NCBI GenBank assembly: GCA_963720755.1
Contig: CAVRGP010000015.1
Span: forward strand, 224,001 to 288,000
DNA: 64,000 bases
Source of the DNA: an uncultured Chloroflexia bacterium
Lineage (GTDB): Bacteria; Chloroflexota; Limnocylindria; Limnocylindrales; CSP1-4
Reading direction: 5' to 3'
In this document: positions 5,559-49,915 of the stretch, in pieces
Numbering within the stretch: position 1 is the first letter of the stretch
Layout of the letters: every line of letters starts with the position of its first letter
Notes under the pieces: model-generated
What the model saw: only the letters and a program-made list of their open reading frames with translations
Databases searched by the model: none
What the model was told of the DNA's origin: nothing
Position numbers and translations under genes: made by a program

Positions 5559-6812
5559 ATGGACGATCCGCCGCGCCCCGGGGCACCCGATCTACGCTCG
5601 ACTGGACCCCTGTCGCGCGATGAGGCGCTCGCGCTCGTCACTCGGGGCGATGAGTTGCTGGCGTCGGGCGACTATGCAGAGGCCGGCCAGCATTTCTCTC
5701 GAGTCGTCGGGTTCGACGATGCGGCCATCACCGCCTCCGCACTGCTCGGCCTCGGCGAGGCGCACTACCGACTGAACGATGAGGTCGGGGCCGTCCAGAC
5801 CTGGGCGGCGATCCTCAAGCTGCCAGACACACCGTCGACGTATCGAGCGTGGCGAAACCTCGCGGCGGCGCGGGTCCGCGATGGCGATCTCCCTGGCGCC
5901 ATCGATGCCTATCGAGAGGCGGACCGGCTGGCGCCCGATGCCGATAAGGCGGAGATCGCCAACCGCCTTGGGTGGCTTGCGAAGGAGACGGGCAATACTC
6001 GCGCCGCGAAGCGGTACTTCGCGAGGGGTCGTGGTGACGGGCCCCGGGTGCCGCTGACCCTGCTCATCATCGCCATCACGTCGATCGTCTCGCTGACGGC
6101 GCTCTTCGCCACTGAGGGCCAGGCGATCTACGACCTCCTCCAGCTCGACAAGCCGGCCGTCGCAGCGGGTGAGTACTGGCGATTGTGGAGCGTGACCCTC
6201 CTGCACGGCGACCTGCTCCACCTGGGCTTCAACATGTATGCCCTCTACCTCGCGGGAACGATCGTCGAGCGGTGGTACGGCTCGATCCGGTTCCTGATCT
6301 TCTACCTGGCCTGCGCCGCGGCCGGCTCGACGGCGAGTTTCGTGTTCGGCGGCGACATCCCGTCGGTCGGGGCGTCGGGGGCGATCTTCGGGTTGTTCGG
6401 GATCCTGCTGACGGCCAGCTGGCTGCACCATCCGGTCGATCGGCAGGCGCGCGGGCTGATGAACCAGCTGGTCTTCCTGGTCATCCTCAACCTCTTCCTC
6501 GGTTTCTCGTCGGGCGGGTCCATCGATAACGCCGCCCACGTGGGTGGTCTCGTGGCGGGGCTTTGGTTCGGCGCGCTGATCCCTCCGAGCGGGGTGCCGA
6601 CGCTGTCGTCGCTCTGGAACCGGCCGGGGGTGGCGAGGACCGGCGCCGGCACGGCGAAGACCCCGTTCTACGTCGTCGCCCTCGGGGTGGTGGTGGTCGC
6701 TGTCGTCGTGGTCATCGGCCTTGCCGTCGGAACCAACGATCGGGTGACGGCGACGGAGCGCGATCCGACGCTCGTCCCGGCGGTCGTCTACAGCTCGCCG
6801 AAGACGACCTGA
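5559..6812 (+). CDS. Rhomboid intramembrane serine protease with N-terminal TPR repeats
   Basis: YWRL...LLHGDLLHLGFNM, GASGAIFG (catalytic Ser), AHVGG (catalytic His). About 150 aa of TPR-like helices at the N-terminus. Confidence 0.92.
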   Translation: MDDPPRPGAPDLRSTGPLSRDEALALVTRGDELLASGDYAEAGQHFSRVVGFDDAAITASALLGLGEAHYRLNDEVGAVQTWAAILKLPDTPSTYRAWRNLAAARVRDGDLPGAIDAYREADRLAPDADKAEIANRLGWLAKETGNTRAAKRYFARGRGDGPRVPLTLLIIAITSIVSLTALFATEGQAIYDLLQLDKPAVAAGEYWRLWSVTLLHGDLLHLGFNMYALYLAGTIVERWYGSIRFLIFYLACAAAGSTASFVFGGDIPSVGASGAIFGLFGILLTASWLHHPVDRQARGLMNQLVFLVILNLFLGFSSGGSIDNAAHVGGLVAGLWFGALIPPSGVPTLSSLWNRPGVARTGAGTAKTPFYVVALGVVVVAVVVVIGLAVGTNDRVTATERDPTLVPAVVYSSPKTT

Positions 6813-7549
6813 GGTCCCGGCTCACCGGTCGCCCCGCCGATCGGCTCGAGCGTGACCATCGCGGCCGTGCTGCCGGCGAGATCCACGCCGAATGGCGCCA
6901 GGAACGGTCCCGTTCCGGAATACCTGAACGTGGCCAGGGCATGGACACCCTGGGCGTCCGCATTCCATAGCTGGTAGACCATCCCGTCCGGCGTTGCCGG
7001 CAGGTGATCGGCCATCAGGAAGGCCTCGTCCGTGCCGGGGTGATAGACGATCATCGCGTCCGCGCTGGGCGCCGCCGGCTCGGCCGACAGACTCGCCGTC
7101 CGATGCGCCGGGTCGAGGATGACCGACATCGCCGCCGCCTGCGTCCGTAGCTGGTCGCTCGCGACGGCCGCGTCGTCGGTCAACTGGACCGTTCGAGCGG
7201 CGAGGCCCGCGGTCACGACGGCAAGGACGGCGGCGACCGCCAGCGCGGCCCAGGTCGGACGCATCCTGACCGGCGCGCGACGCTGCTCGATCCGCGCAGG
7301 TGTCAGCACAGGATCGGGCACGGCCTGGACGCGCGGCAACGCTCGCAAGGTCGCGCCGAGGAGGATGTCCGGAGGTGTCCGCTCGGGCGTCGTGAGAGCG
7401 AGGTCGGCGAGGACGTCATCGAGCGACACGGCCAGTTCGGCACACGAGGTGCATCCCTGGGCGTGCCGGTCGAAGACGCGTCGCTCCGAGGCATCGAGAT
7501 CGTCGAGCGCGGCTCCGGCCGCTAGTCGACGGAAGGTTGCGTGGTCCAT
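6788..7549 (-). CDS. rskA: Anti-sigma factor, RskA family, with zinc-finger (HxxxCxxC) N-terminus
   Basis: HAQGCTSC ZAS motif, a TM helix, and an RskA C-terminal domain (YQLW...AMVTLEPIGGATGEPGPQVVFG). Lies downstream of an ECF sigma. Confidence 0.8.
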   Translation of the reverse strand: MDHATFRRLAAGAALDDLDASERRVFDRHAQGCTSCAELAVSLDDVLADLALTTPERTPPDILLGATLRALPRVQAVPDPVLTPARIEQRRAPVRMRPTWAALAVAAVLAVVTAGLAARTVQLTDDAAVASDQLRTQAAAMSVILDPAHRTASLSAEPAAPSADAMIVYHPGTDEAFLMADHLPATPDGMVYQLWNADAQGVHALATFRYSGTGPFLAPFGVDLAGSTAAMVTLEPIGGATGEPGPQVVFGEL

Positions 7550-35535: not shown

Positions 35536-37920
35536 ATGACGACACAGGCAGAGCCCCGTACCAGCGCCGCGATCGGTGGCATGGGTCACTCGGTCAAGCG
35601 CAAGGAGGACCCGCGGTTCATCCGCGGCCAGGGCGAATACATCGAAGACGTGAACCTGCCCGGCCAGTTGTGGCTGGACATCGTCCGCAGTCCGTATGCC
35701 CACGCCAAGATCAAGAGCATCGACGCATCCGAGGCCCTCAAGATCCCGGGCGTCGCCGCCGTCGTGACCGGCAAGGACCTGGAGGGCTACAAGCTCCACT
35801 GGATGCCGACGCTGGCGGGCGACATGCAGATGGTGCTCCCCGTGGACACCGTGATGTACCAGGCACAGGAGGTCGCGGCCGTCATCGCGACCTCCCGCTA
35901 CGCCGCCGCCGATGGTGTGGCCGCCGTCCTCGTGGACTACGAGCCGCTGCCGGTGATCGTGGACCCGTTCAAGGCGCTCGAGCCCGACGCGTTCGTCCTC
36001 CGGCCGGACCGTGGCCCGGACAAGCAGACCAACCATATCTGGCACTGGGAATCCGGCGACCGGGAGGCGACCGACGCCGATCTCGCCGCGGCCGAGGTCC
36101 ACCTCGAGCAGGACATCTATATCCCGCGGATCCACGTCGCCTCGATCGAGACGTGCGGCTGCGTGGCAGATTGGGATCCGGTCCGCGAGCAGCTCACCCT
36201 CCACATGACGTCACAGGCGCCCCACGCCATCCGGACGGTCCTGGCCCTCGTCGCCGCCGGAGCAGGCCTGCCGATCTCGGAGCAGAACATCCGGGTCAAG
36301 ACGCACGACATCGGCGGTGGCTTCGGGGGCAAGGTGCCGGTGTATCCGGGCTACGTCCTGGCCGTCGCCGCGTCATTCCTGACCGGAAAGCCGGTCAAGT
36401 GGATCGAGGATCGCTCGGAGAACCTCCAGGCTGACTCGTTCGCCCGCGACTACCACATGCACGTCGAGATCGGCGCGACCAAGGCCGGCAAGATCACCTC
36501 GCTCAAGGCGAAGACGATCGCCGACCACGGCTACACGGACGCGGCCGCGGACCCGTCCAAGTATCCGGCCGGCCTGTTCAACGTCATCACCGGGTCGTAC
36601 GACTTCCCGAACGCGTTCGTCGAGGTCGACGGCGTCTACACCAACAAGCCGCCTGGGGGCGTCGCCTACCGCTGCTCCTTCCGGGTGACCGAGGCGGTCC
36701 ACGCGGTCGAGCGGATCGTGGACATCCTGGCCCACGAGATCGGCAAGGATCCGGCCCAGCTCCGGATGGAGAACTTCATCCAGCCCGAGCAGTTCCCGTA
36801 CAAGACACCGACCGGCTGGTCGTACGACTCCGGGAACTACCCGGCGGCGCTCCAGCTGGCCATGGACATGATCGACTACCCCGGGCTTCGCAAGGAGCAG
36901 GCGGAGAAGCGCGCCAAGGGCGAGCTCATGGGCATCGGCATCAGCAGCTTCACCGAGATCGTCGGGGCCGGGCCGTCGCACGACTTCGACATCCTCGGCA
37001 TCAAGATGTTCGATTCGTGCGAGATCCGGGTCCACCCGACCGGCAAGGTCATCGCCCGGATCGGTGTCCAGTCCCAGGGCCAGGGCCACGAGACGACGTT
37101 CGCCCAGATCATCTCCGAGGAGCTCGGCTTCCCGGTCGGTGACATCAAGATCGAGTACGGCGACACGGACACGGCACCGTACGGCCTGGGCACCTACGCG
37201 TCGCGGTCGACGCCGGTCGCCGGGGCCGCGACGGCGATGGCCGCTCGCAAGATCCAGGCAAAGGCCCGGAAGCTTGCTGCGCACCTGCTCGAAGCCAACG
37301 AGGACGATCTCGAGTGGGAGCCCGGCAAGTTCAGCGTCAAGGGCTCGCCCGACCGCTTCAAGACGATCCAGGAGATCGCCTTCGCGGCCTACACCAACCA
37401 TCCGCAGGGGATGGAGGCCGGCCTGGAGGCGGTCGACTATTACGACCCGCCGAACCTGACCTTCCCGTTCGGTAGCTACATCTGCGTCGTCGATATCGAC
37501 AAGGGGACCGGCCAGGTCCACGTCCGTCGGTTCGTCGCCGTGGACGACTGCGGCAACATCATCAATCCGATGATCGTGGACGGCCAGATCCACGGCGGCC
37601 TGACCATGGGTCTCGCTCCGTCGCTGTACGAGCAGATCACCTACGACGAACTCGGCAACAACATGGCCGGCACGTTCATGGACTACCTCCTTCCGACCGC
37701 GGTCGAGGTCCCGTCATGGGAGACCGGCAAGACGACCACCCCGTCGCCGCATCATCCGATCGGTGCCAAGGGGGTCGGCGAGTCGGCCACGGTCGGGGCG
37801 CCGCCCGCCATCGCCAACGCGGTGGTGGACGCGCTCTGGCATCTCGGCGTTCGCAACGTCGACATCCCGATGACGCCCCAGAAGATCTGGGCCATCCTCC
37901 ACGAGAAGGGGATCAGTTGA
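35536..37920 (+). CDS. coxL: Aerobic Mo-Cu CO dehydrogenase large subunit, form I
   Basis: Diagnostic [12 protein letters not shown] loop (Cu-ligating Cys), [28 protein letters not shown]. Confidence 0.97.
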
Positions 37921-37951
37921 CCGACGGTCACGGGACCGACGGGACCACCTG

Positions 37952-38989
37952 ATGGACGGCTCGGTCTTCGCCAGGGCTGCCGAACTCGAGGCTGCGGGTC
38001 GATCGTTCGCGGTCGCGACCGTCGTCGCGGTCCGGCGGCCGACGTCTGCCCGTCCGGGCGCATCCGGGATCATCCATCCGGACGGAACGATCGAGGGCTG
38101 GGTCGGCGGGAGCTGTGCCCAGCCGGTGGTCGTCCGCGAGGCGCTTCGGGCGGTCGCGGATGGGCAGCCGCGCCTGCTCCGGCTGTCACGGGATGGCCCT
38201 GGCGAGGGTCGCCGCGCTGACGGGGTGATCGAGCTGGTCATGACCTGCCACTCGGGCGGCACATTGGAGATCTACGTGGAACCGCATCTACCCAAGCCCA
38301 TGCTGTGGGTCGTCGGCACGACCCCGATCGCCGGTGCCCTGGCCGGTCTCGGGTCGGCGGCGGGCTGGCAGGTGACCGTCATCGACCCGGTCGCCGACCC
38401 TGACGCGTTCCCGATGGCTCGCGTTCACCAGTCGGCCGATATCCGGGGACTGGACCCGGAAGCGACCCCGTACGTCGTGGTCGCGAGCCAGGGGATCTGG
38501 GACGAGGAGGCCGTCGGACTCGCCCTGACCCGGGATGTCGCCTACGTCGGTCTGGTGGCGTCGCCGACCCGGGCCGCCGTGGTCCGTGACTGGCTGCGTG
38601 AGGAAACCACGGTCGGTGACGACCGGATCGCCGCGTTACGAGCCCCGGCCGGTTTGGACCTTGGCGCCGAGACAGCCGAAGAGGTCGCCCTGTCCATCCT
38701 CGCCGAACTCGTCCAGGTTCGGCGCGGCCGCGCCGACTTCGTCGCCGCGCCCGGTCCCGCGACGATCGCCGGTGCGGCGGCCGCCACCGCCCCGATCGAG
38801 TCCGTGGTCGATGACATCGTCCTGCTCGATCCGGTCTGTGGCATGACCGTCGAGCGCGCCCACGCCCGCCACCTCGCCGAGCACGACGGCGTCGTCTACG
38901 CCTTCTGCTCGATCGGATGTCGGACCCGGTTCATCAAGGAGCCGGCCACGTTCCTGGAGGCGAACTCCTACTCATCGATGCACGACTGA
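37952..38989 (+). CDS. XdhC/CoxF family chaperone with C-terminal YHS metal-binding domain
   Basis: GWVGGSCAQP, MTCHSGG, APAGLDLGAETAEEVALSILAE. C-terminal DPVCGM...YAFCSIGC..RF (YHS). Confidence 0.85.
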   Translation: MDGSVFARAAELEAAGRSFAVATVVAVRRPTSARPGASGIIHPDGTIEGWVGGSCAQPVVVREALRAVADGQPRLLRLSRDGPGEGRRADGVIELVMTCHSGGTLEIYVEPHLPKPMLWVVGTTPIAGALAGLGSAAGWQVTVIDPVADPDAFPMARVHQSADIRGLDPEATPYVVVASQGIWDEEAVGLALTRDVAYVGLVASPTRAAVVRDWLREETTVGDDRIAALRAPAGLDLGAETAEEVALSILAELVQVRRGRADFVAAPGPATIAGAAAATAPIESVVDDIVLLDPVCGMTVERAHARHLAEHDGVVYAFCSIGCRTRFIKEPATFLEANSYSSMHD

Positions 38990-39007
38990 CCAGCAGCCGG
39001 AGGCTCC

Positions 39008-39454
39008 ATGCATTTCGAAGGTTCCGTTCCGATCAAGGCATCCCGCGATAAGGTCTGGGCCTTCGTCATCGACCCGGAACAGGTCGGGCAGTGCGGACCG
39101 GGCGTCGAGAAGATCGAGGTCGTCGATGCGACCCACTTCAAGGCGACGGCCAAGGTCGGCATCGGCTTCATCAGCGCCCGCTTCGTCGTGGACATGACCT
39201 TCGCCGAGCAGGAACCGCCGGATCGGGCTCTCATCAAGGCCCACGGCCAGGCACCCGGGAGTGCGGTGGATGCGACCGCGGAGATGCGTCTGTCGGACGG
39301 CCCGGACGGTGCCACGGTCATGGATTGGAACGCGGACGTGAACCTGTCGGGCACGCTGGCGAGCGTCGGCGCGCGACTGATCGAAGGGACCGCCACCAAG
39401 ATGATCGGCCAGACCTTCGACTGCATGCGGACGAAGCTCGAAACGCCGGCCTGA
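39008..39454 (+). CDS. coxG: CO dehydrogenase subunit G (SRPBCC/START fold)
   Basis: VWAFVIDPEQVGQCGPGVE...GTLASVGARLI. Located in the cox operon. Confidence 0.88.
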   Translation: MHFEGSVPIKASRDKVWAFVIDPEQVGQCGPGVEKIEVVDATHFKATAKVGIGFISARFVVDMTFAEQEPPDRALIKAHGQAPGSAVDATAEMRLSDGPDGATVMDWNADVNLSGTLASVGARLIEGTATKMIGQTFDCMRTKLETPA

Positions 39455-39476
39455 TCGCGGATCTGGATCGGTCACG

Positions 39477-40115
39477 GTGGAGCGCCTGCATCGGGTCGTC
39501 GGTCCGGCGTCGACCAACGTCCACATCCTTGCGGATCCGCGCTCACGCGAGGCGATCGCCATCGATACCGCGACGCCGTCGCTGGCATGGATCGCGGACG
39601 AGCTGGCCCAGCGGTCGTGGACGCTGAAGTTGATCGTGTCGACTCACGGTCACTGGGATCACATCGGGGACAACACGGCGGTGGCCACGGCGACCGGGGC
39701 AGAGATCGCCGTCCATCCGGCCGATCGACAACGGCTCACCGATCCGCAGCCCCTGTGGGCACCCTTCGAGATCGTGCCGTCCATCCCGGCCGTCGAGCTG
39801 GCAGAGGGCGGGTTCATCCGGTTCGGATCCATCCGACTCCGCGTCCTCCATACGCCTGGCCATACGGAGGGATCGGTCTGCCTGTCGGCCGATGACGACG
39901 GCCTGTTGTTCAGTGGCGACACCTTGTTCGAGGGTGGATGGGGTCGGATCGACCTGCCCGGTGGCAACGCGTTGGCCATGGCCGAGTCGATCACCCGTCT
40001 GGCCGGCCTCGAGGACCACGTCGGGGTCATGCCCGGCCACGGCAACGAGACGACGATCGGTCGCGAACGCGCCTGGATGGACCTGGTTCGCGACGGAGGC
40101 CGCCTCTTCGCCTGA
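39477..40115 (+). CDS. MBL-fold metallo-hydrolase (glyoxalase II-like)
   Basis: THGHWDHIG, HTPGHT, FSGDTLF, PGHG. Confidence 0.92.
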   Translation: MERLHRVVGPASTNVHILADPRSREAIAIDTATPSLAWIADELAQRSWTLKLIVSTHGHWDHIGDNTAVATATGAEIAVHPADRQRLTDPQPLWAPFEIVPSIPAVELAEGGFIRFGSIRLRVLHTPGHTEGSVCLSADDDGLLFSGDTLFEGGWGRIDLPGGNALAMAESITRLAGLEDHVGVMPGHGNETTIGRERAWMDLVRDGGRLFA

Positions 40116-40155
40116 TCGAACGCGGCGTCCACCCGGCGGGGCCAGGCGAGTCAGC

Positions 40156-40188
40156 GTCCGCGTTTGGTCCGCGTTTGTTCCCCGTCCG
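40156..40188 (+). promoter_or_regulatory. 11-bp direct repeat GTCCGCGTTTG x2 plus a degenerate third copy; candidate SARP-binding site
   Basis: Perfect tandem at 40156-40166 and 40167-40177, upstream of the lipoprotein/NTase operon. Confidence 0.5.
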
Positions 40189-40246
40189 TAGGGTCCGCAT
40201 CTCCGGCGCCCGTCAGCGTCGACGGGGATGCGAATCGGAGGGTGGC

Positions 40247-40840
40247 ATGCGACGGACCGTGATACTCACCATCGGGGCGATGCTGATCGTCGCCGCCTGC
40301 TCATCGAGTGGCAGTACCTCGGAGCCCGAGGCATCCTCGGCGCCAGGCGCCGGATCGTCCACGCCGGCGGTCCCGCCCGTGGCCAGCGTTCCAGGGGATC
40401 TTCCGAGCGTCGATCCGTCCGACCCGCTGGCCGGTTTCCGCGACAAGGACGCTACGGCGGTCGTCGTCATCGGCGATCAGCGCTATGAATTCAGCGGGCT
40501 CTATTGCGTGACCATGGGTGGCGCCCTCGGCGCCAAGAGTGTCGGCGGCGATCCGACCGTCAGCATCGACCTCCCGCCCCAGGATTGGGAGACATCGGCA
40601 GAGGGGTGGGACCCGCCGGCCGTCGTCGTGTCGATCGACGATCCGTATGCCAAGTACAGCGCCGACCCGCAGGCCGCCGAATACCTGACCAACATCAAGC
40701 CCGGCATGAGTCAGGTCGACAGCTTCACGACCGACGGCTATCAAGCCTCAGGGGCGGCTTCGTTCGTGGACGTCGCTGACTTCTCGTCGGGTCCCGTGTC
40801 GATCACAGGCACCTTCGAAGTCAGCTGTCCACGGCCCTAG
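40247..40840 (+). CDS. Hypothetical lipoprotein (beta-rich, two Cys)
   Basis: Lipobox LIVAAC, S/P linker, domain running AVVVIGDQRYEFSGLYC...GTFEVSC. GGAGG RBS. Confidence 0.75.
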   Translation: MRRTVILTIGAMLIVAACSSSGSTSEPEASSAPGAGSSTPAVPPVASVPGDLPSVDPSDPLAGFRDKDATAVVVIGDQRYEFSGLYCVTMGGALGAKSVGGDPTVSIDLPPQDWETSAEGWDPPAVVVSIDDPYAKYSADPQAAEYLTNIKPGMSQVDSFTTDGYQASGAASFVDVADFSSGPVSITGTFEVSCPRP

Positions 40841-40865
40841 CGCGGCACCTACGAGAGGCTCCACG

Positions 40866-42212
40866 ATGGCCGATCCGTCGAGCTCGCCTGGCCGGGACGA
40901 AGCCACCGAGAAGTTGCTCGACGCTGCCGACTCGCTTGGGGTCGAGATCGACCGCGACGAGGCGGAGCGTTGGATCGAGGCCATGTCGGCCGATGCGTCC
41001 GGGACCGTCGAGATCGACGTGAACTCGGGCGTCTACGGCCACCGGGTCACGATGGTGGACTACGACCCCGTCCATCTCGCGAGATTTCGTCGGATGGCGG
41101 CGATCGTCGGGTTCGAGGACCGGCCACCGCAGGTCACGACGGCGCTCGCATTATCCGGCTCGGCTGCACAGAGCCGGATCCAGCGGTTCCCGGCCGACGC
41201 CGACTTCTTCGAGCGGATCCACATCCGGGCCGACACCCGGGAAGCGGCTTGCGACATCCTGGCGACGGTCATCCGGGACAAGGCACGGTCGACGGTCGGG
41301 CACGACGGGCACCGGCTCCAGGAAGTCAAGTTCGGGAGCTGGCCGGAGGACGGTGTCGCGGACGGCGTGGCCGTGCGTCGCGGATCGCCGGTCTCGTGGA
41401 CAGCGAAGCAGGTCGAGGCCGGCTTCGTCGACGTCGTGCGATCCGATGGCACCAGCGATCGATTGGGTTGGGGCGACGTCGCGCTGGATCCGGGCTGGTG
41501 CAAGCTCGACTGGGTCATCGCGGATCCAGTCGGCGGTGGCCTCGCCAACGTTTCGAACGTTCTGGATCCGACCTGGGAAGCCCCCGACGGGACGATCACC
41601 CCGCTGGATGGCTACCTCGATCCGTACTTCCAGGAGGTCTACCTCGAGACCGATTCGATCCCGCTGTTCACAAAACTCGTCAAGGAACTTGGCGCGGACT
41701 CGGTCGCCGAGTACGTGGAGCGGCTGACCGAGGAGGTCTACAAGTACACGGTCAAGGAACCCAATTACGGCAAGGCGGCCAGACGGATGTACAACATCTT
41801 CCGGTTGACCGGCCGCTACGTCGAGGCTGCCTACGTCCGCGAACTGTTCGACGAGCCGGTCACGGCGCTCTACCAGGTCGCCGCACTCCTCCGGACACTC
41901 GACGAAGCGGCCGACGCGGGCGACACGTTCGAGACGGACGCGATGGTCGGCCAGCTCGATCAGCTGATCATGTCCGCGATCACCGCACTCGAAGGGCGTG
42001 ACGAAGCCGAGATGGTCCGCCGGCTGCTTCACCTGCGCGACGCGATCAGCCGTCGTGCCGACGCCTCGGAACGGGCCGCCGACATCGCCGCGGTCCGCGA
42101 CGACGCCATGACCGCGGTCAACGTCTATTTCGAACGGGTGCTGACGGCCGTTCCCAGTATCGCGGCGTATCTGGATGACATCGCAGACCTGCACGGAGGG
42201 AGATCGGGATGA
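40866..42212 (+). CDS. Uncharacterised protein with a Pol-beta-superfamily nucleotidyltransferase motif
   Basis: LSGSAAQSRIQRFPADADFF fits hG[GS]x9-13Dh[DE]h. Candidate third acidic residue in CKLDWVI. Helical C-terminus, no signal peptide. Confidence 0.65.
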   Translation: MADPSSSPGRDEATEKLLDAADSLGVEIDRDEAERWIEAMSADASGTVEIDVNSGVYGHRVTMVDYDPVHLARFRRMAAIVGFEDRPPQVTTALALSGSAAQSRIQRFPADADFFERIHIRADTREAACDILATVIRDKARSTVGHDGHRLQEVKFGSWPEDGVADGVAVRRGSPVSWTAKQVEAGFVDVVRSDGTSDRLGWGDVALDPGWCKLDWVIADPVGGGLANVSNVLDPTWEAPDGTITPLDGYLDPYFQEVYLETDSIPLFTKLVKELGADSVAEYVERLTEEVYKYTVKEPNYGKAARRMYNIFRLTGRYVEAAYVRELFDEPVTALYQVAALLRTLDEAADAGDTFETDAMVGQLDQLIMSAITALEGRDEAEMVRRLLHLRDAISRRADASERAADIAAVRDDAMTAVNVYFERVLTAVPSIAAYLDDIADLHGGRSG

Positions 42213-42832
42213 GACAGCGTCGCAAGTTGAACGGGTCCGTGTTCCTCGGCATCGTGTTGATGGCCGGTGCGTGCAGCAGCGGATCGACGACCGAACCGTC
42301 GGCGGCGCCGGATCTCGGAGCCGGTCCGTCTCAGCCGACCTCGGTCTCGACGCCGGGCAGCACGGCCGCCCCGGCATCGGATGGCCCAGCGGCCGACGGT
42401 GCGCTTGGGGCGGTCGTCAACGTCGCCGGCCACACGTACACGTTCCTGCCCGGACCCTATGGTGTCTGTGGTTATCGAGACGACGGCGCGATCACCTTCT
42501 CCGGCGGCACGAGCGACTTCGACCCGGCGGTCGGCGGTGGGGCGAGCGCAGCATTCTTGATCCAGATCGACGGCTGGCAGGATCCCGATCCGGACCTGGC
42601 CAACGACGGCGACCCCTACATCAATATCAGCGACTATGTCGATGGCCTGCACTGGAACTCCGGCCTTGGCCCGTTCACAGGTGGTGTTACCTACGCGGAT
42701 AGTCACATCGAGTCGTCGACGCTCGTGGGCGGCCGGGCCGAAGGATCGGCCCTGTTCGTCGAGCTGCAGAAAACGTCGGGCCAGGAGCCGCCCGTGTCGA
42801 TCCCGGGGACGTTCGAGATCACCTGCGAATGA
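42209..42832 (+). CDS. Hypothetical lipoprotein, paralog of 40247-40840
   Basis: Lipobox MAGAC; AVVNVAGHTYTF...VC...GSALFVE...PGTFEITCE. ATGA overlaps on both sides. Confidence 0.72.
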   Translation: MRQRRKLNGSVFLGIVLMAGACSSGSTTEPSAAPDLGAGPSQPTSVSTPGSTAAPASDGPAADGALGAVVNVAGHTYTFLPGPYGVCGYRDDGAITFSGGTSDFDPAVGGGASAAFLIQIDGWQDPDPDLANDGDPYINISDYVDGLHWNSGLGPFTGGVTYADSHIESSTLVGGRAEGSALFVELQKTSGQEPPVSIPGTFEITCE

Positions 42833-43719
42833 GCTGGCGTCGATATCGGGTGGCTGACGTGTCGCTGACCGGGGGCTTTCGGACGTGGATGATCATCATG
42901 GCCTGCGCGCTGGCCGCCTGCGGGGGGACGTCTGATCCGGCCGGTGGCGGATCGGCCTCCGATCCGGGTGGGCCACCCGCCTCACCCGAGACGACGAACG
43001 ACAGCAGTGGCGATAACGCGCCGGTCACCGCCACAGTCGACGGCACGACCTACGGGTACCCGGCCGGGACCTGTGACGTTGGCGGCGATCGGGTCCAGGT
43101 CCATGCAGCCCGAATGGACGTACTGGCCACGGTCGATGTCCGATGGCTCGGCGACGGCGGCAGGGAGACGTTCGATGTCGTCCACACGGGTGGACAGGAC
43201 CCGCAGCCGCCGACCCCGTTCGACCTTCATGCGAGCCCGAACGATGCGGACACCACCTGGGACGTGAGCGTCGACGGGAATAGCGCGGTGATCGTGGCCC
43301 GGATGCTCGACCGATCGCCTGCAGGAGCCGGCGGATACCACGACGTCACGATCAACGTCCAGTGCAACGAGCGTGGGTTCGGCGGCTTTGAGGCACCCGA
43401 GACGAATGTGCCTCAGACGGAGCTGCCGGTGGCGACGTCGGCGGGCGAGAGCGCGATCGCTCTCGAGCTGGGCGGCACGACCTACTCGTGGACGTACCCC
43501 GGCTGTGCGGCGGCCGAAGCCAGCGGGTTCGTGGCCGTGAACCCGGCGCTCGACCGGCTGTTCGTGACGGCCGGTGAGATGACGCTGAGCCTGGCCGATG
43601 GCACCACCTGGACGGCGACGGGCGCGCAGCTCTCGATCTCCGGTGGTTCGGCGACCTGGACGGGGACGATGGCTTCGACCTCCGGCTCACAGCCGGCGAC
43701 CCTCACGATCGCTTGCTGA
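42829..43719 (+). CDS. Hypothetical lipoprotein with two tandem Cys-bridged beta domains
   Basis: Lipobox ALAAC; VTATVDGTTYGYPAGTC...VTINVQC and IALELGGTTYSWTYPGC...ATLTIAC. Confidence 0.7.
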   Translation: MSWRRYRVADVSLTGGFRTWMIIMACALAACGGTSDPAGGGSASDPGGPPASPETTNDSSGDNAPVTATVDGTTYGYPAGTCDVGGDRVQVHAARMDVLATVDVRWLGDGGRETFDVVHTGGQDPQPPTPFDLHASPNDADTTWDVSVDGNSAVIVARMLDRSPAGAGGYHDVTINVQCNERGFGGFEAPETNVPQTELPVATSAGESAIALELGGTTYSWTYPGCAAAEASGFVAVNPALDRLFVTAGEMTLSLADGTTWTATGAQLSISGGSATWTGTMASTSGSQPATLTIAC

Positions 43720-43754
43720 GTGTGTGCCTGACCGGGTAGGTCAAGTGGAGCAGG

Positions 43755-46673
43755 TCAAGACTGACCGGCGATGAGCCGCAACTCCTCGACCAGCCGGCCG
43801 GCGAACACGGTCGTCGGGATGGAGCTGAGTTCCGGCCGCTCGCCCGTGGCAGCCAGACCGGCGGCGATCCGAGCTCGGTAGCCGGGCGTGGCGGCGTGGC
43901 GATCATCCAGCGGGATCCATCCGTACTCGCGATGGACGCGATCGAACTGGTCCAGCAGTTGTGCCGCCATCTGCCAGGCTTCCCGGTCGATGAGGAGCGG
44001 AAGCGCGCCAAAGGCATTGAGCACGAAGTAGATCGCGTGCTGCCGTGCGGTGAGATCGAGTGCTTCGACGATGGCCTTCGCGGCTTCGGCCGGATCGCCC
44101 CATTTCGCCTCGACGAGACCACGCTGGGCCAGGGCTCCCGACCGGACCCGGCGGTCGTTGGCCCGATCGGCAAGGATCAGCGCCCGGTCGAGGTGCGCTC
44201 GCGCTGTCGCCTCATCGTCGTCGTGCCAGGCTGCGAGTGAGAGATGCCGATGGCCGACCGAGGCGATCCGCGGGTAATCCTCGGCCTCGAGGAAGGCGGT
44301 GGCGCCGATCAGGATGGCCTCGGCCAGATCCCGGTCGGCCCCATAGGCGGCCTGCATCCCGATGACCACCCGGCACTCCGCAGCGGCGACCCGGTCGCCA
44401 GCCGCCTCGTAGGTCGAGATCGCCTGGTTGATCAGCGAGACACCTTCGCTCGGCCGACGGTGGATCTGGACGCGGCCCATGCCGTACAGGCCGCGCGCTT
44501 CGCGACGCCGGTCGCCCAGTCGGATGGCCAGGTCACGAACCTCCGCGCTCATCGCTGCCGACTCGTCGTAGTGGCCGACGAAGAACGCCATCCCACTCGC
44601 TGCGGCCAGGATGTCGATCCGGCTCGAGTCGTCGCTGGCGAAGGCGAGACACTCCCGGAGCCAGCGCTGGCCCTCGGAAGCGAGGAAGCGACTGATCCAG
44701 AACTGCGCCAGGCCGGCCGCGATCTCGGCCGCCTGGGCGGCCCGATCAGTGTCGAGGAGGTGGCGCATCGCGATGCGATGGTCGGCGATGCTGGCCTCGA
44801 CCTCGTTCAGTGCGGCTGCTTCCATCGACGTGAAGGCAGCGGCATCGGTCGCTCGGGCGGCCGCGACGGACCAATCGGCATGTCGGTCGCGGGCGGCTCG
44901 CGACTGACGCGAGGAAGTCAGTCTCCGGAGCCCGAAGTCGCGCACCGGCTCGAGCATCCGATACCGCACGGCACCGTCGCGGGCTCGTTCCGGCACGAGC
45001 AGTGATGCCTCGACGAGTCGACACAGCGTGTCGTCGATCGTCCTGGGGTCGTCGGTATCGACGCAGACGCTGCCGAACGCGCCCGCCGTGAACGTGTCGA
45101 CGAAGGCGGACGCCCTCGCCAGGACCTGTCGATCCACGGTGTCGAGCAGCGCGACACTCCGGGCGATCGCGTCGGCAACCGACGCATCGTCGTCGGGGCC
45201 TGACCCCTCCGGGCGTGCGCCGGCCGGCCTCTGTCGGCCGGCGAAGGTCAGACCGGCCGCTCGGTGCAGATCGAGCGAGACGACCCGCCGTGCTGCCAGT
45301 TCCACGGCGAGCGGCATCCCACCGGTCCTCCGACAGAGGGCGAGCAACTCCTCGGCGTCGGCAGCCCTGAGGTCGATCCGTGGATCCGCGTCCCGGACTC
45401 GATCGGCCATCATCTGGAGCGTTGCCGACTCCCACATGCCGTCGGTCATCTCGGGCAGTGACAGCGGTCGGAGCGGCCAGACCGTCTCGCCGGCGATACC
45501 GAGACGCCGGCGGCTCGTGGCCAGGATCCGCACCCGGTCGCCGTGGAGTCGCGTCCCGAGCAACCGGCGGACCTCGGCAATCACATGCTCGCAGTTGTCG
45601 ATGATGATCAATGCCGGACGCGGCGCAAGGAGTCGGTAGAGCTCGTCGAGTTCGTCGACCCGGTCATCGATCGCCAGGACCGAGGTGATCGTGGATAGGA
45701 CATCGGCCTCGGTCCTCGTGCCCGAAAGCCTGACTAGCCAGACGCCGGCATGGTGTGCGTCGAGACGTCGGGACCCGAGCTCGATCGCGAGTCTGGTCTT
45801 GCCGATGCCGGGTGGTCCGGTGATGGTGACGAGATGATGACGGTCTGCGGCCGCGCTGACCGCGGCAAGGTCGCCCTCGCGGCCGACGAAGGTCGAGTCC
45901 ACGAACGGGACGTTATGCGCTCCGCTTGCGCCGGGCAGGTCGATCAACGCAGGATCGTGGTTGTGGACCCGCGTCTCGAGCGCCTGGAGACGCGGCCCGG
46001 GGGTCACCGCCAGCTCCGCGTCGAGCGTCTCGCGAGCCGTCTTGAGCGTCGCCCGGGCGTCGGAGGCTCGGCCCGCCATGGAGTAGGCCAGCACCAGTTC
46101 CTCCCACAGCGACTCGTTGAGCGGCTGTTCGGCGACAAGCTGTCGGAGGAGCGCGATCGATTCCGACACGCGGCCCTGCAGGTTGAGCGCACGCGCCTGG
46201 GTGGTCCGAGCAGCGATGAGCAACTCGACCAGGCGGTCACGCTCGCCGCGTGCCTCCTCGACGTCGGCCAGCTCCGGGTATGGCTCACCGCGCCACAGTC
46301 GTGCCGCGCGGGCGCCGATGTCGCCGGCATCCCGGAACCGGCCCTGGGCCAGATGGCGTCCGGCGCGAGCGACCAGGGTGGTGAACTGGCGGACATCGAA
46401 CTCATGTCCTTCCAGATGCAGCAGGTACCCGTCCCGATGGAGTTGGATGACACCGGGCACCCGGCGTCGGAGGGCGGACAGGTGGACGTGGATCGCCCGG
46501 CCCGCGGTCGCCGGCGGTGTCTCGCCCCACATCCGGTCGATCAAGGTATCGATCGGGAGTGGCGCCTCCGGGTTCACCAGGAAGGACGCGAGGAGGCGTC
46601 GGTGGGCGGGACGCAACGGGATCGCCTGTCCGTCAGACAGCACGATCAGGGTTCCGAGGGCCTCGAATCTCAT
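43755..46673 (-). CDS. AfsR/SARP-family transcriptional regulator (wHTH-BTAD, NB-ARC-like ATPase, TPR)
   Basis: MRFEALGTL..., LWRGEPYPEL, PLNESLW..LVLAY, FVGRE, TGPPGIGKTRLA, IIDNCEHV, GMPLAVELAA, TPR tail. Confidence 0.9.
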   Translation of the reverse strand: MRFEALGTLIVLSDGQAIPLRPAHRRLLASFLVNPEAPLPIDTLIDRMWGETPPATAGRAIHVHLSALRRRVPGVIQLHRDGYLLHLEGHEFDVRQFTTLVARAGRHLAQGRFRDAGDIGARAARLWRGEPYPELADVEEARGERDRLVELLIAARTTQARALNLQGRVSESIALLRQLVAEQPLNESLWEELVLAYSMAGRASDARATLKTARETLDAELAVTPGPRLQALETRVHNHDPALIDLPGASGAHNVPFVDSTFVGREGDLAAVSAAADRHHLVTITGPPGIGKTRLAIELGSRRLDAHHAGVWLVRLSGTRTEADVLSTITSVLAIDDRVDELDELYRLLAPRPALIIIDNCEHVIAEVRRLLGTRLHGDRVRILATSRRRLGIAGETVWPLRPLSLPEMTDGMWESATLQMMADRVRDADPRIDLRAADAEELLALCRRTGGMPLAVELAARRVVSLDLHRAAGLTFAGRQRPAGARPEGSGPDDDASVADAIARSVALLDTVDRQVLARASAFVDTFTAGAFGSVCVDTDDPRTIDDTLCRLVEASLLVPERARDGAVRYRMLEPVRDFGLRRLTSSRQSRAARDRHADWSVAAARATDAAAFTSMEAAALNEVEASIADHRIAMRHLLDTDRAAQAAEIAAGLAQFWISRFLASEGQRWLRECLAFASDDSSRIDILAAASGMAFFVGHYDESAAMSAEVRDLAIRLGDRRREARGLYGMGRVQIHRRPSEGVSLINQAISTYEAAGDRVAAAECRVVIGMQAAYGADRDLAEAILIGATAFLEAEDYPRIASVGHRHLSLAAWHDDDEATARAHLDRALILADRANDRRVRSGALAQRGLVEAKWGDPAEAAKAIVEALDLTARQHAIYFVLNAFGALPLLIDREAWQMAAQLLDQFDRVHREYGWIPLDDRHAATPGYRARIAAGLAATGERPELSSIPTTVFAGRLVEELRLIAGQS

Positions 46674-46797: not shown

Positions 46798-47793
46798 CTA
46801 CCTGGCGAGCGTTCGCCGGTACGCCGCTGCCCGACTGTGGACCTCGAACCCAAGGCCCTCGTACAACCCCAGCGCGCCGTTGGGGTTCTCCGAGTCCACG
46901 CCGAGCATCGCTTCATCCAGACCAGCGTCCCGGAACCGCCTGAGGGATTCGGCGGTGATCGCGCGAGCGAGACCACGACGGCGCCACGGCCGACGCACGC
47001 TGATGTGTTCCAGCCAGCCGCGCTTGATACCCAGCCGTTGGTTCTCCTCCGCCCAGACCCAGTTCTGGACGACGCCGGCAACCTCGTCGCCGTCCCAGGC
47101 CACGACCCACAGGTTCGTGTCGAGACCATCCCGTCCGAACGTCTTGGCGAAGTCGCTGTCGCCCATCTCGCGGTGGCCCCAATGGTCCCGGAACGCCTCG
47201 TTCTCCGCATCGACGACCTGGCGACGCTGGTCCTCGCGGATCGTCCGGACCTCCAGCCCATCGGGGAGGGGAGCGTCGGGGATGTCATCGAGCGAACGTC
47301 GGCGCATCAGGAAGAAGTGCCGGACCGGCTCGAAGCCGGCGTCCGCCAGGAGCCTGCAATGGCCGATCTCGGCATCCTCGGCAAAGGATCCAAGACCGAC
47401 CTCGGTGTCAGCATCTTCGACCGCGGCCCTCGCTCCGGCTCGCGCGATCGCCCAGGCCTGGAGCCAGCGACCGAGTCCGCGTCGACGAAAGCCCGGATCC
47501 ACGGAGCCCCAGATGTCGTAGATCGGGACGTCATCCCGGATGACGCGCTCCAGTCCCGTCGCCGCGATCACCCGACCGTCGACTTCGACCAGGATGACGT
47601 CGTCGGCCGGGTCCACCCCCTCCGAGCTCTCCATATCGATCTGCAGATCAGAGGCGGTCGGCAGGTACGGGATCTGGTCGAACGCGTTCGCGGTGGCGAT
47701 GAGATCGGCGAGTCGCGCGTAGTCCGAAGCGTCGCCGAACCGGCAACCGACCGCGCCCTCGACGGGCGACGCCTGGAGGTCCGTGATCGTCAT
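46798..47793 (-). CDS. Tandem-domain GNAT acetyltransferase (MshD-like)
   Basis: Two acetyl-CoA motifs (VDPGFRRRGLG; VRRPWRRRGLA), EAFRDHWG, LGVDSENPNGALGLYEGLGF. Confidence 0.88.
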   Translation of the reverse strand: MTITDLQASPVEGAVGCRFGDASDYARLADLIATANAFDQIPYLPTASDLQIDMESSEGVDPADDVILVEVDGRVIAATGLERVIRDDVPIYDIWGSVDPGFRRRGLGRWLQAWAIARAGARAAVEDADTEVGLGSFAEDAEIGHCRLLADAGFEPVRHFFLMRRRSLDDIPDAPLPDGLEVRTIREDQRRQVVDAENEAFRDHWGHREMGDSDFAKTFGRDGLDTNLWVVAWDGDEVAGVVQNWVWAEENQRLGIKRGWLEHISVRRPWRRRGLARAITAESLRRFRDAGLDEAMLGVDSENPNGALGLYEGLGFEVHSRAAAYRRTLAR

Positions 47794-48824
47794 GCCTCGA
47801 ATGTACGCCGGTAGGCGCCCTCGCGTCGGTAGACCTCGAAGCCGACGCCCTCGTAGAGCTGCACCGCTCCATTCGGGTTCGTCGCATCGACACCGAGCAT
47901 CGCCTCGGTCAAGCCCTTCGCCCGCAACCGTTCCAACGAGGTGACGGTGAGCGCGCGCGCCAGACCACGACGACGCCACTCGCGCCGGACGCAGACCGTC
48001 TCGAGCCATCCGCGTTCGACACCGAGGTCGGCGTTCTCGTCGGCCCAGATCCAGTTCTCGACGACGCCGGCGACCTGATCGCCGTCCCACGCGACTGCCC
48101 ACAACGAGGTGTCGATCTCCTTGTGGGCGAAGCTCACCTCGAAATCGTGGTCCGTTCCCTCGCGATGACCCCAATGGTCGCGGAAGGCCTCCACCTCGGC
48201 GTCGTAGATCGCCCGATGCTGGTCTGGCGTCACCGCCCGTACCTCGAGACCATCGGGCATCGCCACGGGCGGGATCGACGCGCCGAGGTCGCGACGCATC
48301 AGGTAGAACTGCCGCACACGTTCGAATCGTTCGTGGGTGAGCAGGGCGATCGCGCCATGCTCACCGTCATCGGCGCCCGACTGGACGATGATCGGGCGAC
48401 CCGGCTGGATGTCGGCTGCCCGGTCGCGGACTCGCTGGAGGTTCCACGCCAGCAGGGCACGACCGATCCCACGCCGGCGGACAGCCGGATGGACATGGCC
48501 GTAGACCTGGAACATCTGCTCGCCGTCGCGAACGACCGATTCCGATCCGGCCGAGGCGACGACCGTTCCGCCGAGTTCGACCATGACGAAGTCGCGGACG
48601 GGGTCGAACCCCGGGTCGCCTTCCTTTCGGAGACGCAACTGCTGTGCGGTCGGCAACCACGGGATCCCGTCGGCCCGGCTCGCCGTTCGGAGCAGGGACG
48701 CGAGCGGTTCGTAGTCGTCCACGCCCATCCAGGCCCGAGCCTGGAGGCCGGGGATCGGCGGCAGGCCATCCACGATGGGCGGACTGGTCGGCACATTCGT
48801 GGTCGTGGTCGTGGTCGTGGTCAT
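47790..48824 (-). CDS. Tandem-domain GNAT acetyltransferase, paralog of the adjacent gene
   Basis: VHPAVRRRGIG; VRREWRRRGLA; EAFRDHWG; LGVDATNPNGAVQLYEGVGF. Poly-Thr N-terminus. Confidence 0.88.
   Translation of the reverse strand: MTTTTTTTTNVPTSPPIVDGLPPIPGLQARAWMGVDDYEPLASLLRTASRADGIPWLPTAQQLRLRKEGDPGFDPVRDFVMVELGGTVVASAGSESVVRDGEQMFQVYGHVHPAVRRRGIGRALLAWNLQRVRDRAADIQPGRPIIVQSGADDGEHGAIALLTHERFERVRQFYLMRRDLGASIPPVAMPDGLEVRAVTPDQHRAIYDAEVEAFRDHWGHREGTDHDFEVSFAHKEIDTSLWAVAWDGDQVAGVVENWIWADENADLGVERGWLETVCVRREWRRRGLARALTVTSLERLRAKGLTEAMLGVDATNPNGAVQLYEGVGFEVYRREGAYRRTFEA
48799..48822 (-). repeat. Hexamer repeat (GACCAC)x4 encoding an N-terminal Thr run
   Basis: gtggtc repeated on the + strand; protein begins MTTTTTTTTN. 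Confidence 0.75.
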
Positions 48825-49915
48825 CGGTCCCTCCCGTATTTTCGTTCCATGTGTTCGCCGACGGACTTGCTGATGAGCTTCCATGTGCGGCGGTGCTCCG
48901 CCCGCGCCCGTGGGTCACCCTCGCGGGCGAGTCGTGCCGATTCACGTTCGAGCTTGCGGTGGCTGGCGAGGCGATCCTCGGTCAACCGCCCATCGGCCAG
49001 CGCGGCCTGGATCGCGCAGCCCGGCTCGCCGTCGTGCCCGCAGTCGCTGAAGCGGCAGGTGGCGGCGATGTCGACGATGTCGTCGAACGCCTCGTCGACG
49101 CCCTCGTCCGCTCCGAGCACTTCGAGGGCCCGGATCCCGGGGGTATCGACGAGCAGGGCGCCATCCGGCAGTTCGAACAGTTCGCGATGGGTCGTCGTAT
49201 GCCGGCCCCGCGAGTCGGATGCCCGGACCTCGCTGGTCGCCTGGCGATCCTCGCCGAGGAGTGCGTTCACGAGGGTGGACTTGCCGACCCCCGACGATCC
49301 GAGGATGGCTGCCGTCGTGCCCGGCCGGAGGTGGGTGCGGAGCGCATCGAGGCCCTGGCCGGTCCACGCGGACACGGCGACCACGGCGACACCGGCAGCG
49401 ATCGCGTCGACGGCCACCAGGCGACCGTCGACGTCGTCGGCCAGGTCCGCCTTGTTGAGGACGACGACGGGGGTGATCGCACTCGACCAGGCGACGGCGA
49501 GATAGCGCTCGATCCGGCGCAGGTTGAAGTCGTTGTCGAGCCCGGCGACGAGGAGGGCGACATCGACGTTGGCCGCCATGACCTGCTCGTCATCAAGGCG
49601 GCTCCCGCGCCTCGAACCGTCCGCGGCCATCCGCTTGAAGACGGTTCGTCGAGGCAGGATGGTGGCGACGACGTCATCCTGGTCGACGCTCACCCAGTCA
49701 CCGACCGTCGGGAAGTCCGAGTGCGCGAGGGCATCGAACCTGAACGACCCTGAGACCGTCGCCGGTCGATCCCCGCGGTCGTCCCGGACGATGGACGTCT
49801 CGCGATGGACGGCCACGACGCGCGCCGGACGGTGGCCGGCGCGCGCGACGGCCGCGAAGGCGTCGGCCCAGCCGGTGTCCCATCCGAGCGCGTCGAGCCG
49901 GTCGGTGGCCACCAC
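48821..49915 (-). CDS. rsgA: Ribosome small subunit-dependent GTPase A
   Basis: PTVGDWV, AANVD, NKAD, GSSGVGKST, GRHTTT, DTPGIR, Zn finger CRFSDCGHDGEPGC. Confidence 0.95.
   Translation of the reverse strand: MVATDRLDALGWDTGWADAFAAVARAGHRPARVVAVHRETSIVRDDRGDRPATVSGSFRFDALAHSDFPTVGDWVSVDQDDVVATILPRRTVFKRMAADGSRRGSRLDDEQVMAANVDVALLVAGLDNDFNLRRIERYLAVAWSSAITPVVVLNKADLADDVDGRLVAVDAIAAGVAVVAVSAWTGQGLDALRTHLRPGTTAAILGSSGVGKSTLVNALLGEDRQATSEVRASDSRGRHTTTHRELFELPDGALLVDTPGIRALEVLGADEGVDEAFDDIVDIAATCRFSDCGHDGEPGCAIQAALADGRLTEDRLASHRKLERESARLAREGDPRARAEHRRTWKLISKSVGEHMERKYGRDR

Follow-up and report, generated by a model that had tools for sequence, protein, structure and literature searches.

We set out to determine whether a run of four genes from an uncultured Chloroflexia bacterium encodes a new molecular system or an enzyme in incidental company. 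The genes occupy positions 40247-43719 of a 64,000-nucleotide stretch of contig CAVRGP010000015.1, the whole of which we call the window, and they encode a 448-residue cytoplasmic protein (40866-42212, + strand) set among three lipoproteins. An initial annotation, made from the letters of the DNA alone, had taken the protein for an uncharacterised Pol-beta-type nucleotidyltransferase (NTase) and had suggested that the run might form a surface-sensing, nucleotide-signalling or toxin-immunity module. Our analysis upholds the enzyme and not the module. By sequence, the 448-residue protein belongs to a large unannotated family, mainly of Chloroflexota. Conservation and the fold model together show that it has an NTase fold with a conserved GS/DxD site, and in comparisons of predicted structure the closest relatives of the family are the Mg662/V21-type 'ORFan' NTases of Mimiviridae and virophages, a link that is structural only. 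We think it about 65% probable that the protein is a stand-alone NTase whose lipoprotein neighbours are a lineage-specific accretion.

No model in Pfam, NCBIfam or PADLOC matches the 448-residue protein, which bears out its description as uncharacterised, and a search of 29 members of the family against Pfam likewise found no match. A word-indexed search returned more than 6161 homolog clusters at 90% identity; the best 120 of them are 64-80% identical to the query over 91-100% of its length, and are called 'hypothetical' wherever they are named at all. When the 50%-identity representatives were searched exhaustively, 511 scored E <= 1e-3 and 148 of these E <= 1e-30, and at least 593 relatives were confirmed in GTDB species genomes. 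The best 80 of these confirmed relatives are the related loci referred to below, making 81 loci with the window. They come from Chloroflexota (Limnocylindria and Anaerolineae) and two Acidimicrobiia, and each of the 80 carries a single copy of the NTase gene. These records place the window within the Limnocylindria group of Chloroflexota. The nearest, L004, encodes a protein 96% identical to that of the window, with DNA identity of about 89%. The cytoplasmic location that had been proposed fits the family's close members too: in all 120 close homologs, the N-terminus is free of a hydrophobic segment or signal peptide.

The case for an NTase begins with the predicted structure. An AlphaFold2 model built on a 29-sequence alignment (A2) reached a predicted local distance difference test score (pLDDT) of 87.1 and a predicted template modelling score (pTM) of 0.85. 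It comprises an N-terminal helical/beta region (residues ~8-81), a core with a beta-rich insertion (~90-259) and a C-terminal lobe of eight helices (262-447). In the core, a first strand (90-97) runs into the GS turn, a second strand (111-121) opens with the DxD, a helix follows at 125-142, and the chain is then beta-rich to about residue 259. Foldseek found three significant matches to this model in the PDB, all of them Megavirus chilensis Mg662 (4ams, 4xul and 4amq; E 7e-6 to 2e-4, probability 1.00, template modelling score (TM) 0.56 on the target, 407-419 columns, 10% identity). Entries 4ams and 4amq carry the title 'A Megaviridae ORFan gene encodes a new nucleotidyl transferase', and the title of 4xul describes a complex with GTP. 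Every further row scores E of 6e-3 or worse, with TM of 0.15-0.26; in this tail MB21D2, TENT5/FAM46, OAS1, an A-adding enzyme, CCA-adding enzymes, DncV, CdnC, MiD51 and TglT are mixed with unrelated proteins.

The same relatives emerged, more strongly, from a search of the viral models in BFVD. All 17 matches at E <= 1e-3 were virophage or giant-virus proteins, the best being a protein of Zamilon virophage (E 4.5e-13). Further virophage matches came from Yellowstone Lake and Qinghai Lake virophages and from mavirus. The giant-virus matches include a Fadolivirus 'V21 virophage-like protein', a Pithovirus 'nucleotidyl transferase' and a Faunusvirus 'L544-like helical domain', and proteins of Tupanvirus, Klosneuvirus and ChoanoV1 were matched as well. 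Over both searches, every significant match either bears an NTase title or is V21-like. In the ESM Atlas, the protein led to unannotated Chloroflexota clusters and, at 0.88, to a Nucleocytoviricota NTP_transf_2 cluster. A resemblance to orphan NTases of giant and polinton-like viruses, offered at the outset as an unverified suggestion, turned out to be the best structural match available.

The likeness to Mg662 and to the Sputnik V21, Zamilon and OLV5-type proteins extends over the full length, from the N-terminal part through the NTase core to the helical lobe. V21-type matches in BFVD range from E 4.5e-13 to 3e-5 with TM on the target of 0.38-0.70, and the sizes are alike, with 341-367 residues in the Mg662 crystal chains and 442 in the Zamilon protein against 448 here. 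The two groups differ in that their aligned sequences are only 9-16% identical, and in that the viral proteins belong to viruses of protists whereas ours are bacterial. These matches are far stronger than those to any cellular NTase of known function. The cGAS/OAS/Mab21 group, TENT5/FAM46, the CD-NTases and the CCA/A-adding enzymes share with the 448-residue protein the GS, a spacer of about eleven residues, the DxD, and a core followed by a helical lobe. However, as fold matches they are weak (E 6e-3 to 0.1, TM 0.14-0.26), no Pfam model of theirs matches, and they leave uncovered both the N-terminal extension and the beta-rich insertion (~159-260). The comparison against cGAS, CD-NTase and poly(A) polymerase folds that had been proposed as a check was thus decided in favour of Mg662/V21, by a wide distance over cGAS, OAS, TENT5 and DncV.

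We then asked whether the residues expected of an NTase active site are conserved, counting over the 120 close homologs and over those 50%-identity representatives that cover each position. All coordinates of these residues are on the + strand. G98-S99 (41157-41162) form the predicted NTP-binding turn after the first core strand, and D111-A-D113 (41196-41204), at the start of strand 111-121, supply the putative metal-binding carboxylates. All four named residues are invariant in the close homologs (120/120 each), and among the representatives G98 is kept in 81/84, S99 in 78/82, D111 in 77/84 and D113 in 80/84. Eleven residues separate S99 from D111, and a phenylalanine follows D113. The GS-x11-DAD motif reported for this protein is therefore present and conserved, but the hydrophobic residue that a strict reading of the motif places before the glycine is not there, the residue preceding G98 being a serine. 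A loose form of the motif, G[GS]-x9-13-Dh[DE]h, occurs in 6 of 346 six-frame open reading frames (ORFs) of at least 100 residues in the window. Because the loose motif alone is not rare, the weight of the NTase assignment rests on conservation and fold.

The third carboxylate of the site is less easily assigned. Minimal Pol-beta NTases carry an h[DE]h motif on the strand following the helix after the DxD. The aspartate originally put forward, D215 (41508-41510), does lie in the CKLDWVI stretch (212-218), but it is the least conserved of the candidates: in 41 full-coverage representatives with an intact GS/DxD, an acidic residue (Asp or Glu) occupies the position of D215 in 31 and that of E153 (41322-41324, strand 149-158) in 37, while Asp is found at D234 and at D248 in 40 each. 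Of the first two, E153 is the more likely third carboxylate, because in the predicted secondary structure it falls on the strand after the helix that follows the DxD, as in the canonical Pol-beta layout. Further along, a cluster formed by D234, W237, D248, D252 and Q256 (41565-41633) is conserved in the representatives at 87/89, 88/91, 89/91, 88/90 and 90/90, respectively.

The most conserved stretch of the family belongs to the C-terminal lobe, where it lies on the first long helices. This is the basic motif N300-I311, NYGKAARRMYNI (41763-41798), which had been picked out from the single sequence and which is conserved in the family alignment: K303 is kept in 93/99 representatives, R306 (as Lys or Arg) in 94/99, R307 in 96/99, and Y309 and N310 in 96/100 each. 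R313, also in the helical lobe, is kept in 97/100. By analogy with other two-lobed NTases, the NYGKAARRMYNI motif probably contacts phosphates, substrate or acceptor.

Taken as a stand-alone enzyme, the protein would work as follows. G98-S99 and D111/D113, together with a third carboxylate that is likelier to be E153 than D215, would hold two Mg2+ ions and a nucleoside triphosphate (NTP), and the basic residues K303, R306, R307, N310 and R313 of the helical lobe would hold phosphates or the acceptor. A nucleoside monophosphate would then be transferred to a cellular acceptor, for which our leading guess is the 3' end of an RNA or oligonucleotide, or a nucleotide, and the enzyme would do this without a dedicated partner gene. 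We infer the roles of the catalytic residues, the acceptor and the activity itself.

Three observations on the family stand apart from this argument. The two Acidimicrobiia proteins, L003 and L011, nest within Chloroflexota in the tree described below, grouping with L009 and L010 (Shimodaira-Hasegawa-like approximate likelihood ratio test (SH-aLRT) support 96), a placement that suggests transfer between phyla or mis-binning. In L004 the NTase gene lies in two frames that break at 6546-6561 (tblastn aligns it at 6001-6546 and 6561-7313, and the two ORFs encode 287 and 321 residues), which is either a true frameshift or an assembly indel error. Finally, a few distant relatives, P0181, P0223 and P0218 at 33-34% identity and P0194 at 38%, have a signal peptide or an N-terminal hydrophobic segment. 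In P0223 (1291 residues) the signal peptide is accompanied by large N-terminal AbfB, FBA, Lectin_C and PLAT domains, and P0181 (1067 residues) has a PQQ_2 propeller domain. To judge from their sequences, these four appear to represent a branch of the family that is secreted or works outside the cytoplasm.

Having considered the enzyme, we turn to the genes around it. The arrangement in the window is as first described, four co-oriented genes of which the last three are joined by ATGA overlaps. The first, lipo1 (40247-40840, +), encodes 197 residues, with a lipobox cysteine at position 18. A 25-bp gap with a purine-rich GAGAGG-type ribosome-binding stretch separates it from the NTase gene at 40866. 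The NTase gene overlaps lipo2 (42209-42832, +; 207 residues, lipobox Cys22) at 42209-42212, and lipo2 overlaps lipo3 (42829-43719, +; 296 residues, lipobox Cys31) at 42829-42832. The G+C content is 0.66-0.71 throughout 40247-43719. In this organism the three lipoprotein genes and the NTase gene probably share a transcript. The transcription unit may exceed the four genes, because the upstream genes from 35536 onward share the + strand with gaps of 18-131 bp. A scan for promoters and terminators gave no signal above shuffle expectation, and an Rfam search of 39400-44400 gave nothing beyond an nhaA-I match at chance level (E 0.41).

All three flanking proteins have the lipobox character that had been ascribed to them, with a basic N-terminus, a hydrophobic segment and then the lipobox cysteine, in segments ending AAC, GAC and AAC; lipo1 has in addition a weak LPAM_1 match (E 0.007) under the cut-off. 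Their description as three paralogues needs qualification. That lipo1 and lipo2 are paralogues is clear (29% identity, E 4e-12), but lipo3 is only distantly related to them (BLASTP E 0.045). A hidden Markov model (HMM) of lipo1/lipo2 does not find lipo3, and HMM-versus-sequence tests across the two groups are not significant (E 0.4-10), so that lipo3 is joined to the others by profile-profile comparison only, in which the two profiles align end to end (probability 88.6%, E 2.7e-6, 103 columns). The shared domain of about 95-130 residues occurs, by alignment, once in lipo1 and in lipo2 and twice in lipo3 (43015-43368 and 43450-43716). Beyond the lipobox, lipo1 and lipo2 have exactly two cysteines each, one about 15 residues into the domain and the other at the extreme C-terminus (Cys87 and Cys194 in lipo1, Cys87 and Cys206 in lipo2), and lipo3 has two such pairs.

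These are rare proteins. Over the related loci, tblastn found homologs of lipo1 in L004 only; among 5.8 billion proteins lipo2 has 3 homolog clusters, and lipo3 has 2 besides the window's own protein. The lipoproteins have no match in Pfam, NCBIfam or PADLOC, and an AlphaFold2 model of lipo2, from a 6-sequence alignment, is unusable (pLDDT 38). Three leads, all below significance, point to LpqH: the best PDB match of the domain profile is 4xin, an 'LpqH orthologue' (E 0.048, 108/112 positions); PF05481 is the best Pfam match (E 0.036, in 1 of 13 domains, with the gathering score not reached); and the ESM Atlas gave an LpqH cluster at 0.88. Like LpqH/Myco_19_kDa proteins, lipo1-3 are small lipoproteins of actinobacterial type with a lipobox and a Pro/Ala/Ser-rich linker; unlike them, lipo3 and its relatives in L006 and L007 have 2-3 tandem copies of the domain. 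Their sequences thus suggest exported proteins built on one fast-evolving two-Cys domain, possibly LpqH-like.

If the lipoproteins were part of how the enzyme works, they should recur beside it, and we searched for them within 6 kb of the NTase gene in the 80 related loci. A lipobox regular expression placed a lipoprotein next to the NTase in 3/80 loci and missed true cases, such as lipo1 of L004, so we counted with an HMM of the two-Cys domain instead. By this measure 76 of the 80 loci have no two-Cys lipoprotein domain within 6 kb, which for these loci is the outcome that the initial annotation had named as refuting its proposal. The four that do are the closest relatives of the window. The domain lies upstream of the NTase in L002, on both sides in L004, on both sides in L006 (where the downstream protein has three repeats), and in two genes 2-3.5 kb downstream in L007, whose matches were outside the training set of the HMM. 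In a quick maximum-likelihood tree of 78 of the 81 loci, from which three without a profile-matching ORF, L007 among them, were left out, a single six-row clade (SH-aLRT 97) unites the window, L004, L002 and L006 with L001 and L005, neither of which has the domain within 6 kb; L007 presumably lies beside this clade. Even between close relatives the set is not constant. Lipo3 is absent from L004, where a clean 911 bp of the window (42841-43751) is replaced by 22 bp (L004:7944-7967) between flanks of about 89% DNA identity. Co-occurrence with SARP regulators, which had been suggested as a second thread to follow, is equally restricted, with SARP-like genes in just four of the 80 loci, again L002, L004, L006 and L007, and adjoining the locus in L004.

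Nor did another neighbour take the place of the lipoproteins. When ORFs of the 81 loci were clustered all against all, with alternative-frame ORFs over the NTase gene set aside, no neighbour family occurred in more than 13 of the 81. When the longest ORF on either flank of each locus was annotated with Pfam, the search gave, downstream, ComEA/ComEC in 11/74, a convergent DEAD-box helicase in 5/74, and glycyl-tRNA synthetase (GlyRS) and an M17 aminopeptidase in 2/74 each, and, upstream, leucyl-tRNA synthetase (LeuRS) and an aldehyde dehydrogenase in 5/76 each and DnaG in 3/76. Outside the window's clade, then, the NTase is flanked by varied and ordinary chromosomal genes that differ by clade. 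In one Limnocylindrales subclade (L031, L033, L050, L079 and others) the NTase gene sits between leuS and comEA/comEC, and in Anaerolineales it sits near dnaG, glyS or the M17 aminopeptidase gene. We also noted, just upstream of the NTase in L001 (4577-5908), a twin-arginine-type lipoprotein whose translation has His-rich motifs resembling a multicopper oxidase; it is not of the two-Cys family.

The lipoprotein operon, the feature that suggested a new system, does not generalise. The association is old enough to outlast recognisable similarity between the lipoproteins, yet it is confined to one small lineage and is variable there. On the reading that we favour, the lipoproteins were gained around the NTase in that lineage and are no part of the enzyme's function.

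Several points weigh against the reading of the protein as a stand-alone NTase. The third carboxylate has four candidates, E153, D215, D234 and D248. Four of the 45 full-coverage representatives lack the GS/DxD and largely keep the other conserved cluster, which may mark a second functional site or a different one. Sequence searches give no link to Mg662, and the structural alignments are just 9-16% identical. The family has no known activity or substrate, and Mg662 itself is characterised here by PDB titles only. Many of the longest flanking ORFs have no Pfam match and may be spurious. Lastly, within the window's clade the lipoprotein synteny persists at lipoprotein identities of about 15-30% and the genes are translationally coupled, a persistence that could reflect selection rather than mere inertia.

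A more ambitious version of the enzyme reading takes this Chloroflexota-centred family for the cellular counterpart of the Mg662/Sputnik-V21 NTases, and possibly for their source; the bacterial enzyme would make or modify an undescribed nucleotide-containing product in a new substrate pocket. That pocket would be defined by D234, D248, D252 and Q256 together with the beta-rich insertion. We hold this version only tentatively and regard it as somewhat doubtful.

A different alternative is that the protein does something other than nucleotidyl transfer, the NTase core serving as a scaffold and the cluster D234/D248/D252/Q256, with the basic motif, being the real site. The conservation of the cluster speaks for this, since D234, D248, D252 and Q256 are kept above any candidate third carboxylate. 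So do the four representatives that have lost the GS/DxD, in which D248 and D252 are kept in all four, D234 and Q256 in three, and R307 and R313 largely; pseudo-enzymes such as MiD51 also appear among the fold matches. Because of these GS/DxD-less members, some of the family may be pseudo-enzymes or rely on a second site. For the family as a whole we consider this alternative improbable, as the GS/DxD is invariant in 120/120 close homologs and kept in 41/45 representatives, which is the pattern of an active site, and the closest solved relative was deposited with GTP (4xul title).

We judge it similarly unlikely that the four genes form a functional module in which the NTase acts on, or signals for, the exported two-Cys lipoproteins, whether by nucleotidylylating a lipoprotein precursor or through envelope-linked nucleotide signalling under SARP control. 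Such a module would account for the ATGA overlaps that couple the NTase to lipo2 and lipo2 to lipo3, for the genes of the same domain that flank or follow the NTase in L002, L004, L006 and L007 despite divergence beyond BLAST detection, and for the SARP-like genes near those same four. It sits poorly with the 76 of 80 loci that lack such a lipoprotein, with the want of any family-wide conserved neighbour, with L001 and L005, which belong to the same six-row clade and lack the domain, and with the dispensability of lipo3 between genomes about 89% identical in DNA. The evolutionary rates are also mismatched, the NTase being 64-80% identical across the class and the lipoproteins near-orphans, which argues against a co-evolving pair. 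Moreover, because the NTase has no export signal, enzyme and mature lipoproteins would reside in different compartments.

Least credible of all is a conflict system, in which the protein would be a CBASS-like synthase of cyclic oligonucleotides, a toxin or antitoxin of MNT type, or a polymorphic-toxin domain whose immunity proteins are the lipoproteins. Although DncV, CdnC, OAS1, MB21D2 and the TglT toxin match the fold weakly (E 6e-3 to 0.09), and rare distant relatives (P0223 and P0181) are fused to secreted carbohydrate-binding or propeller domains in a manner reminiscent of secreted toxins, PADLOC matches none of the four proteins, tblastn against 72,556 plasmid and 50,697 phage records found no NTase homolog, neither a Cap effector nor a HEPN or other defence partner is present in the window or among the flanking ORFs scanned in related loci, the DncV and CdnC matches have TM of just 0.14-0.19, and the NTase is a single-copy, strongly conserved gene among ordinary and varied chromosomal neighbours. 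The lack of the usual partners had been noticed from the window alone, and the wider scan agrees with it. Membership of the CD-NTases and CBASS was rejected on the absence of a PADLOC or Pfam model match and of an adjacent Cap effector. MNT proteins are about 100-150 residues long, and membership of an MNT-HEPN toxin-antitoxin pair was rejected for a protein of 448 residues with a large helical lobe and no HEPN match among its neighbours.

The remaining features of the window concern the surroundings of the four genes. Convergent with them lies a SARP/AfsR-type regulator (43755-46667, - strand, start codon approximate) with Trans_reg_C, BTAD, NB-ARC/AAA and TPR domains (Pfam BTAD E 4e-26). Past the regulator, at 46798-48884 (-), are two adjacent paralogous GNAT acetyltransferase genes with the GNAT domain in the C-terminal half of each product; this region has a 67%-identical DNA echo in L004. 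On the other side, 35536-40115, directly 5' of lipo1, encodes a CoxL-like molybdenum hydroxylase subunit, XdhC, CoxG and a metallo-beta-lactamase-fold hydrolase. The XdhC has a C-terminal YHS domain, and the metallo-beta-lactamase-fold gene also precedes lipo1 in L004.

The stand-alone NTase can be set against what is on record for its viral relatives. PMC3671162 gives Sputnik V21/OLV5 as having 'no detectable domains' and 'no other homologs', and PMC5786535 ties a V21-like protein of Orpheovirus by HHpred to a Mimivirus 'putative transferase'. The Mg662 protein was nowhere mentioned in the literature that our search returned, including the partial texts of PMC11646218 and PMC4402537, and the same search did not find a link between the bacterial family and the V21/Mg662 proteins of virophages and giant viruses. 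Among PDB sequences, phmmer with the single 448-residue protein gave no meaningful match, and the family profile found no NTase, its best hit being an unrelated designed protein (E 0.28); with neither query did an Mg662 chain appear at E up to 10.

What this work removes is the attractive but unsupported reading of the locus as a surface-sensing or toxin-immunity operon, the lipoprotein context being a clade-local accretion. What it leaves is a protein family thousands strong, without a name or a domain model, whose members are 64-80% identical across a whole class of Chloroflexota that abound in soil and fresh water. Its superfamily is a known one, and Mg662, a relative in fold, was already deposited; the bacterial family itself is unnamed. 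The fold link gives the viral 'ORFan' enzyme family Mg662/V21 its first cellular relatives, and the bacterial protein offers an easier route to the activity of the Mg662/V21 enzymes.

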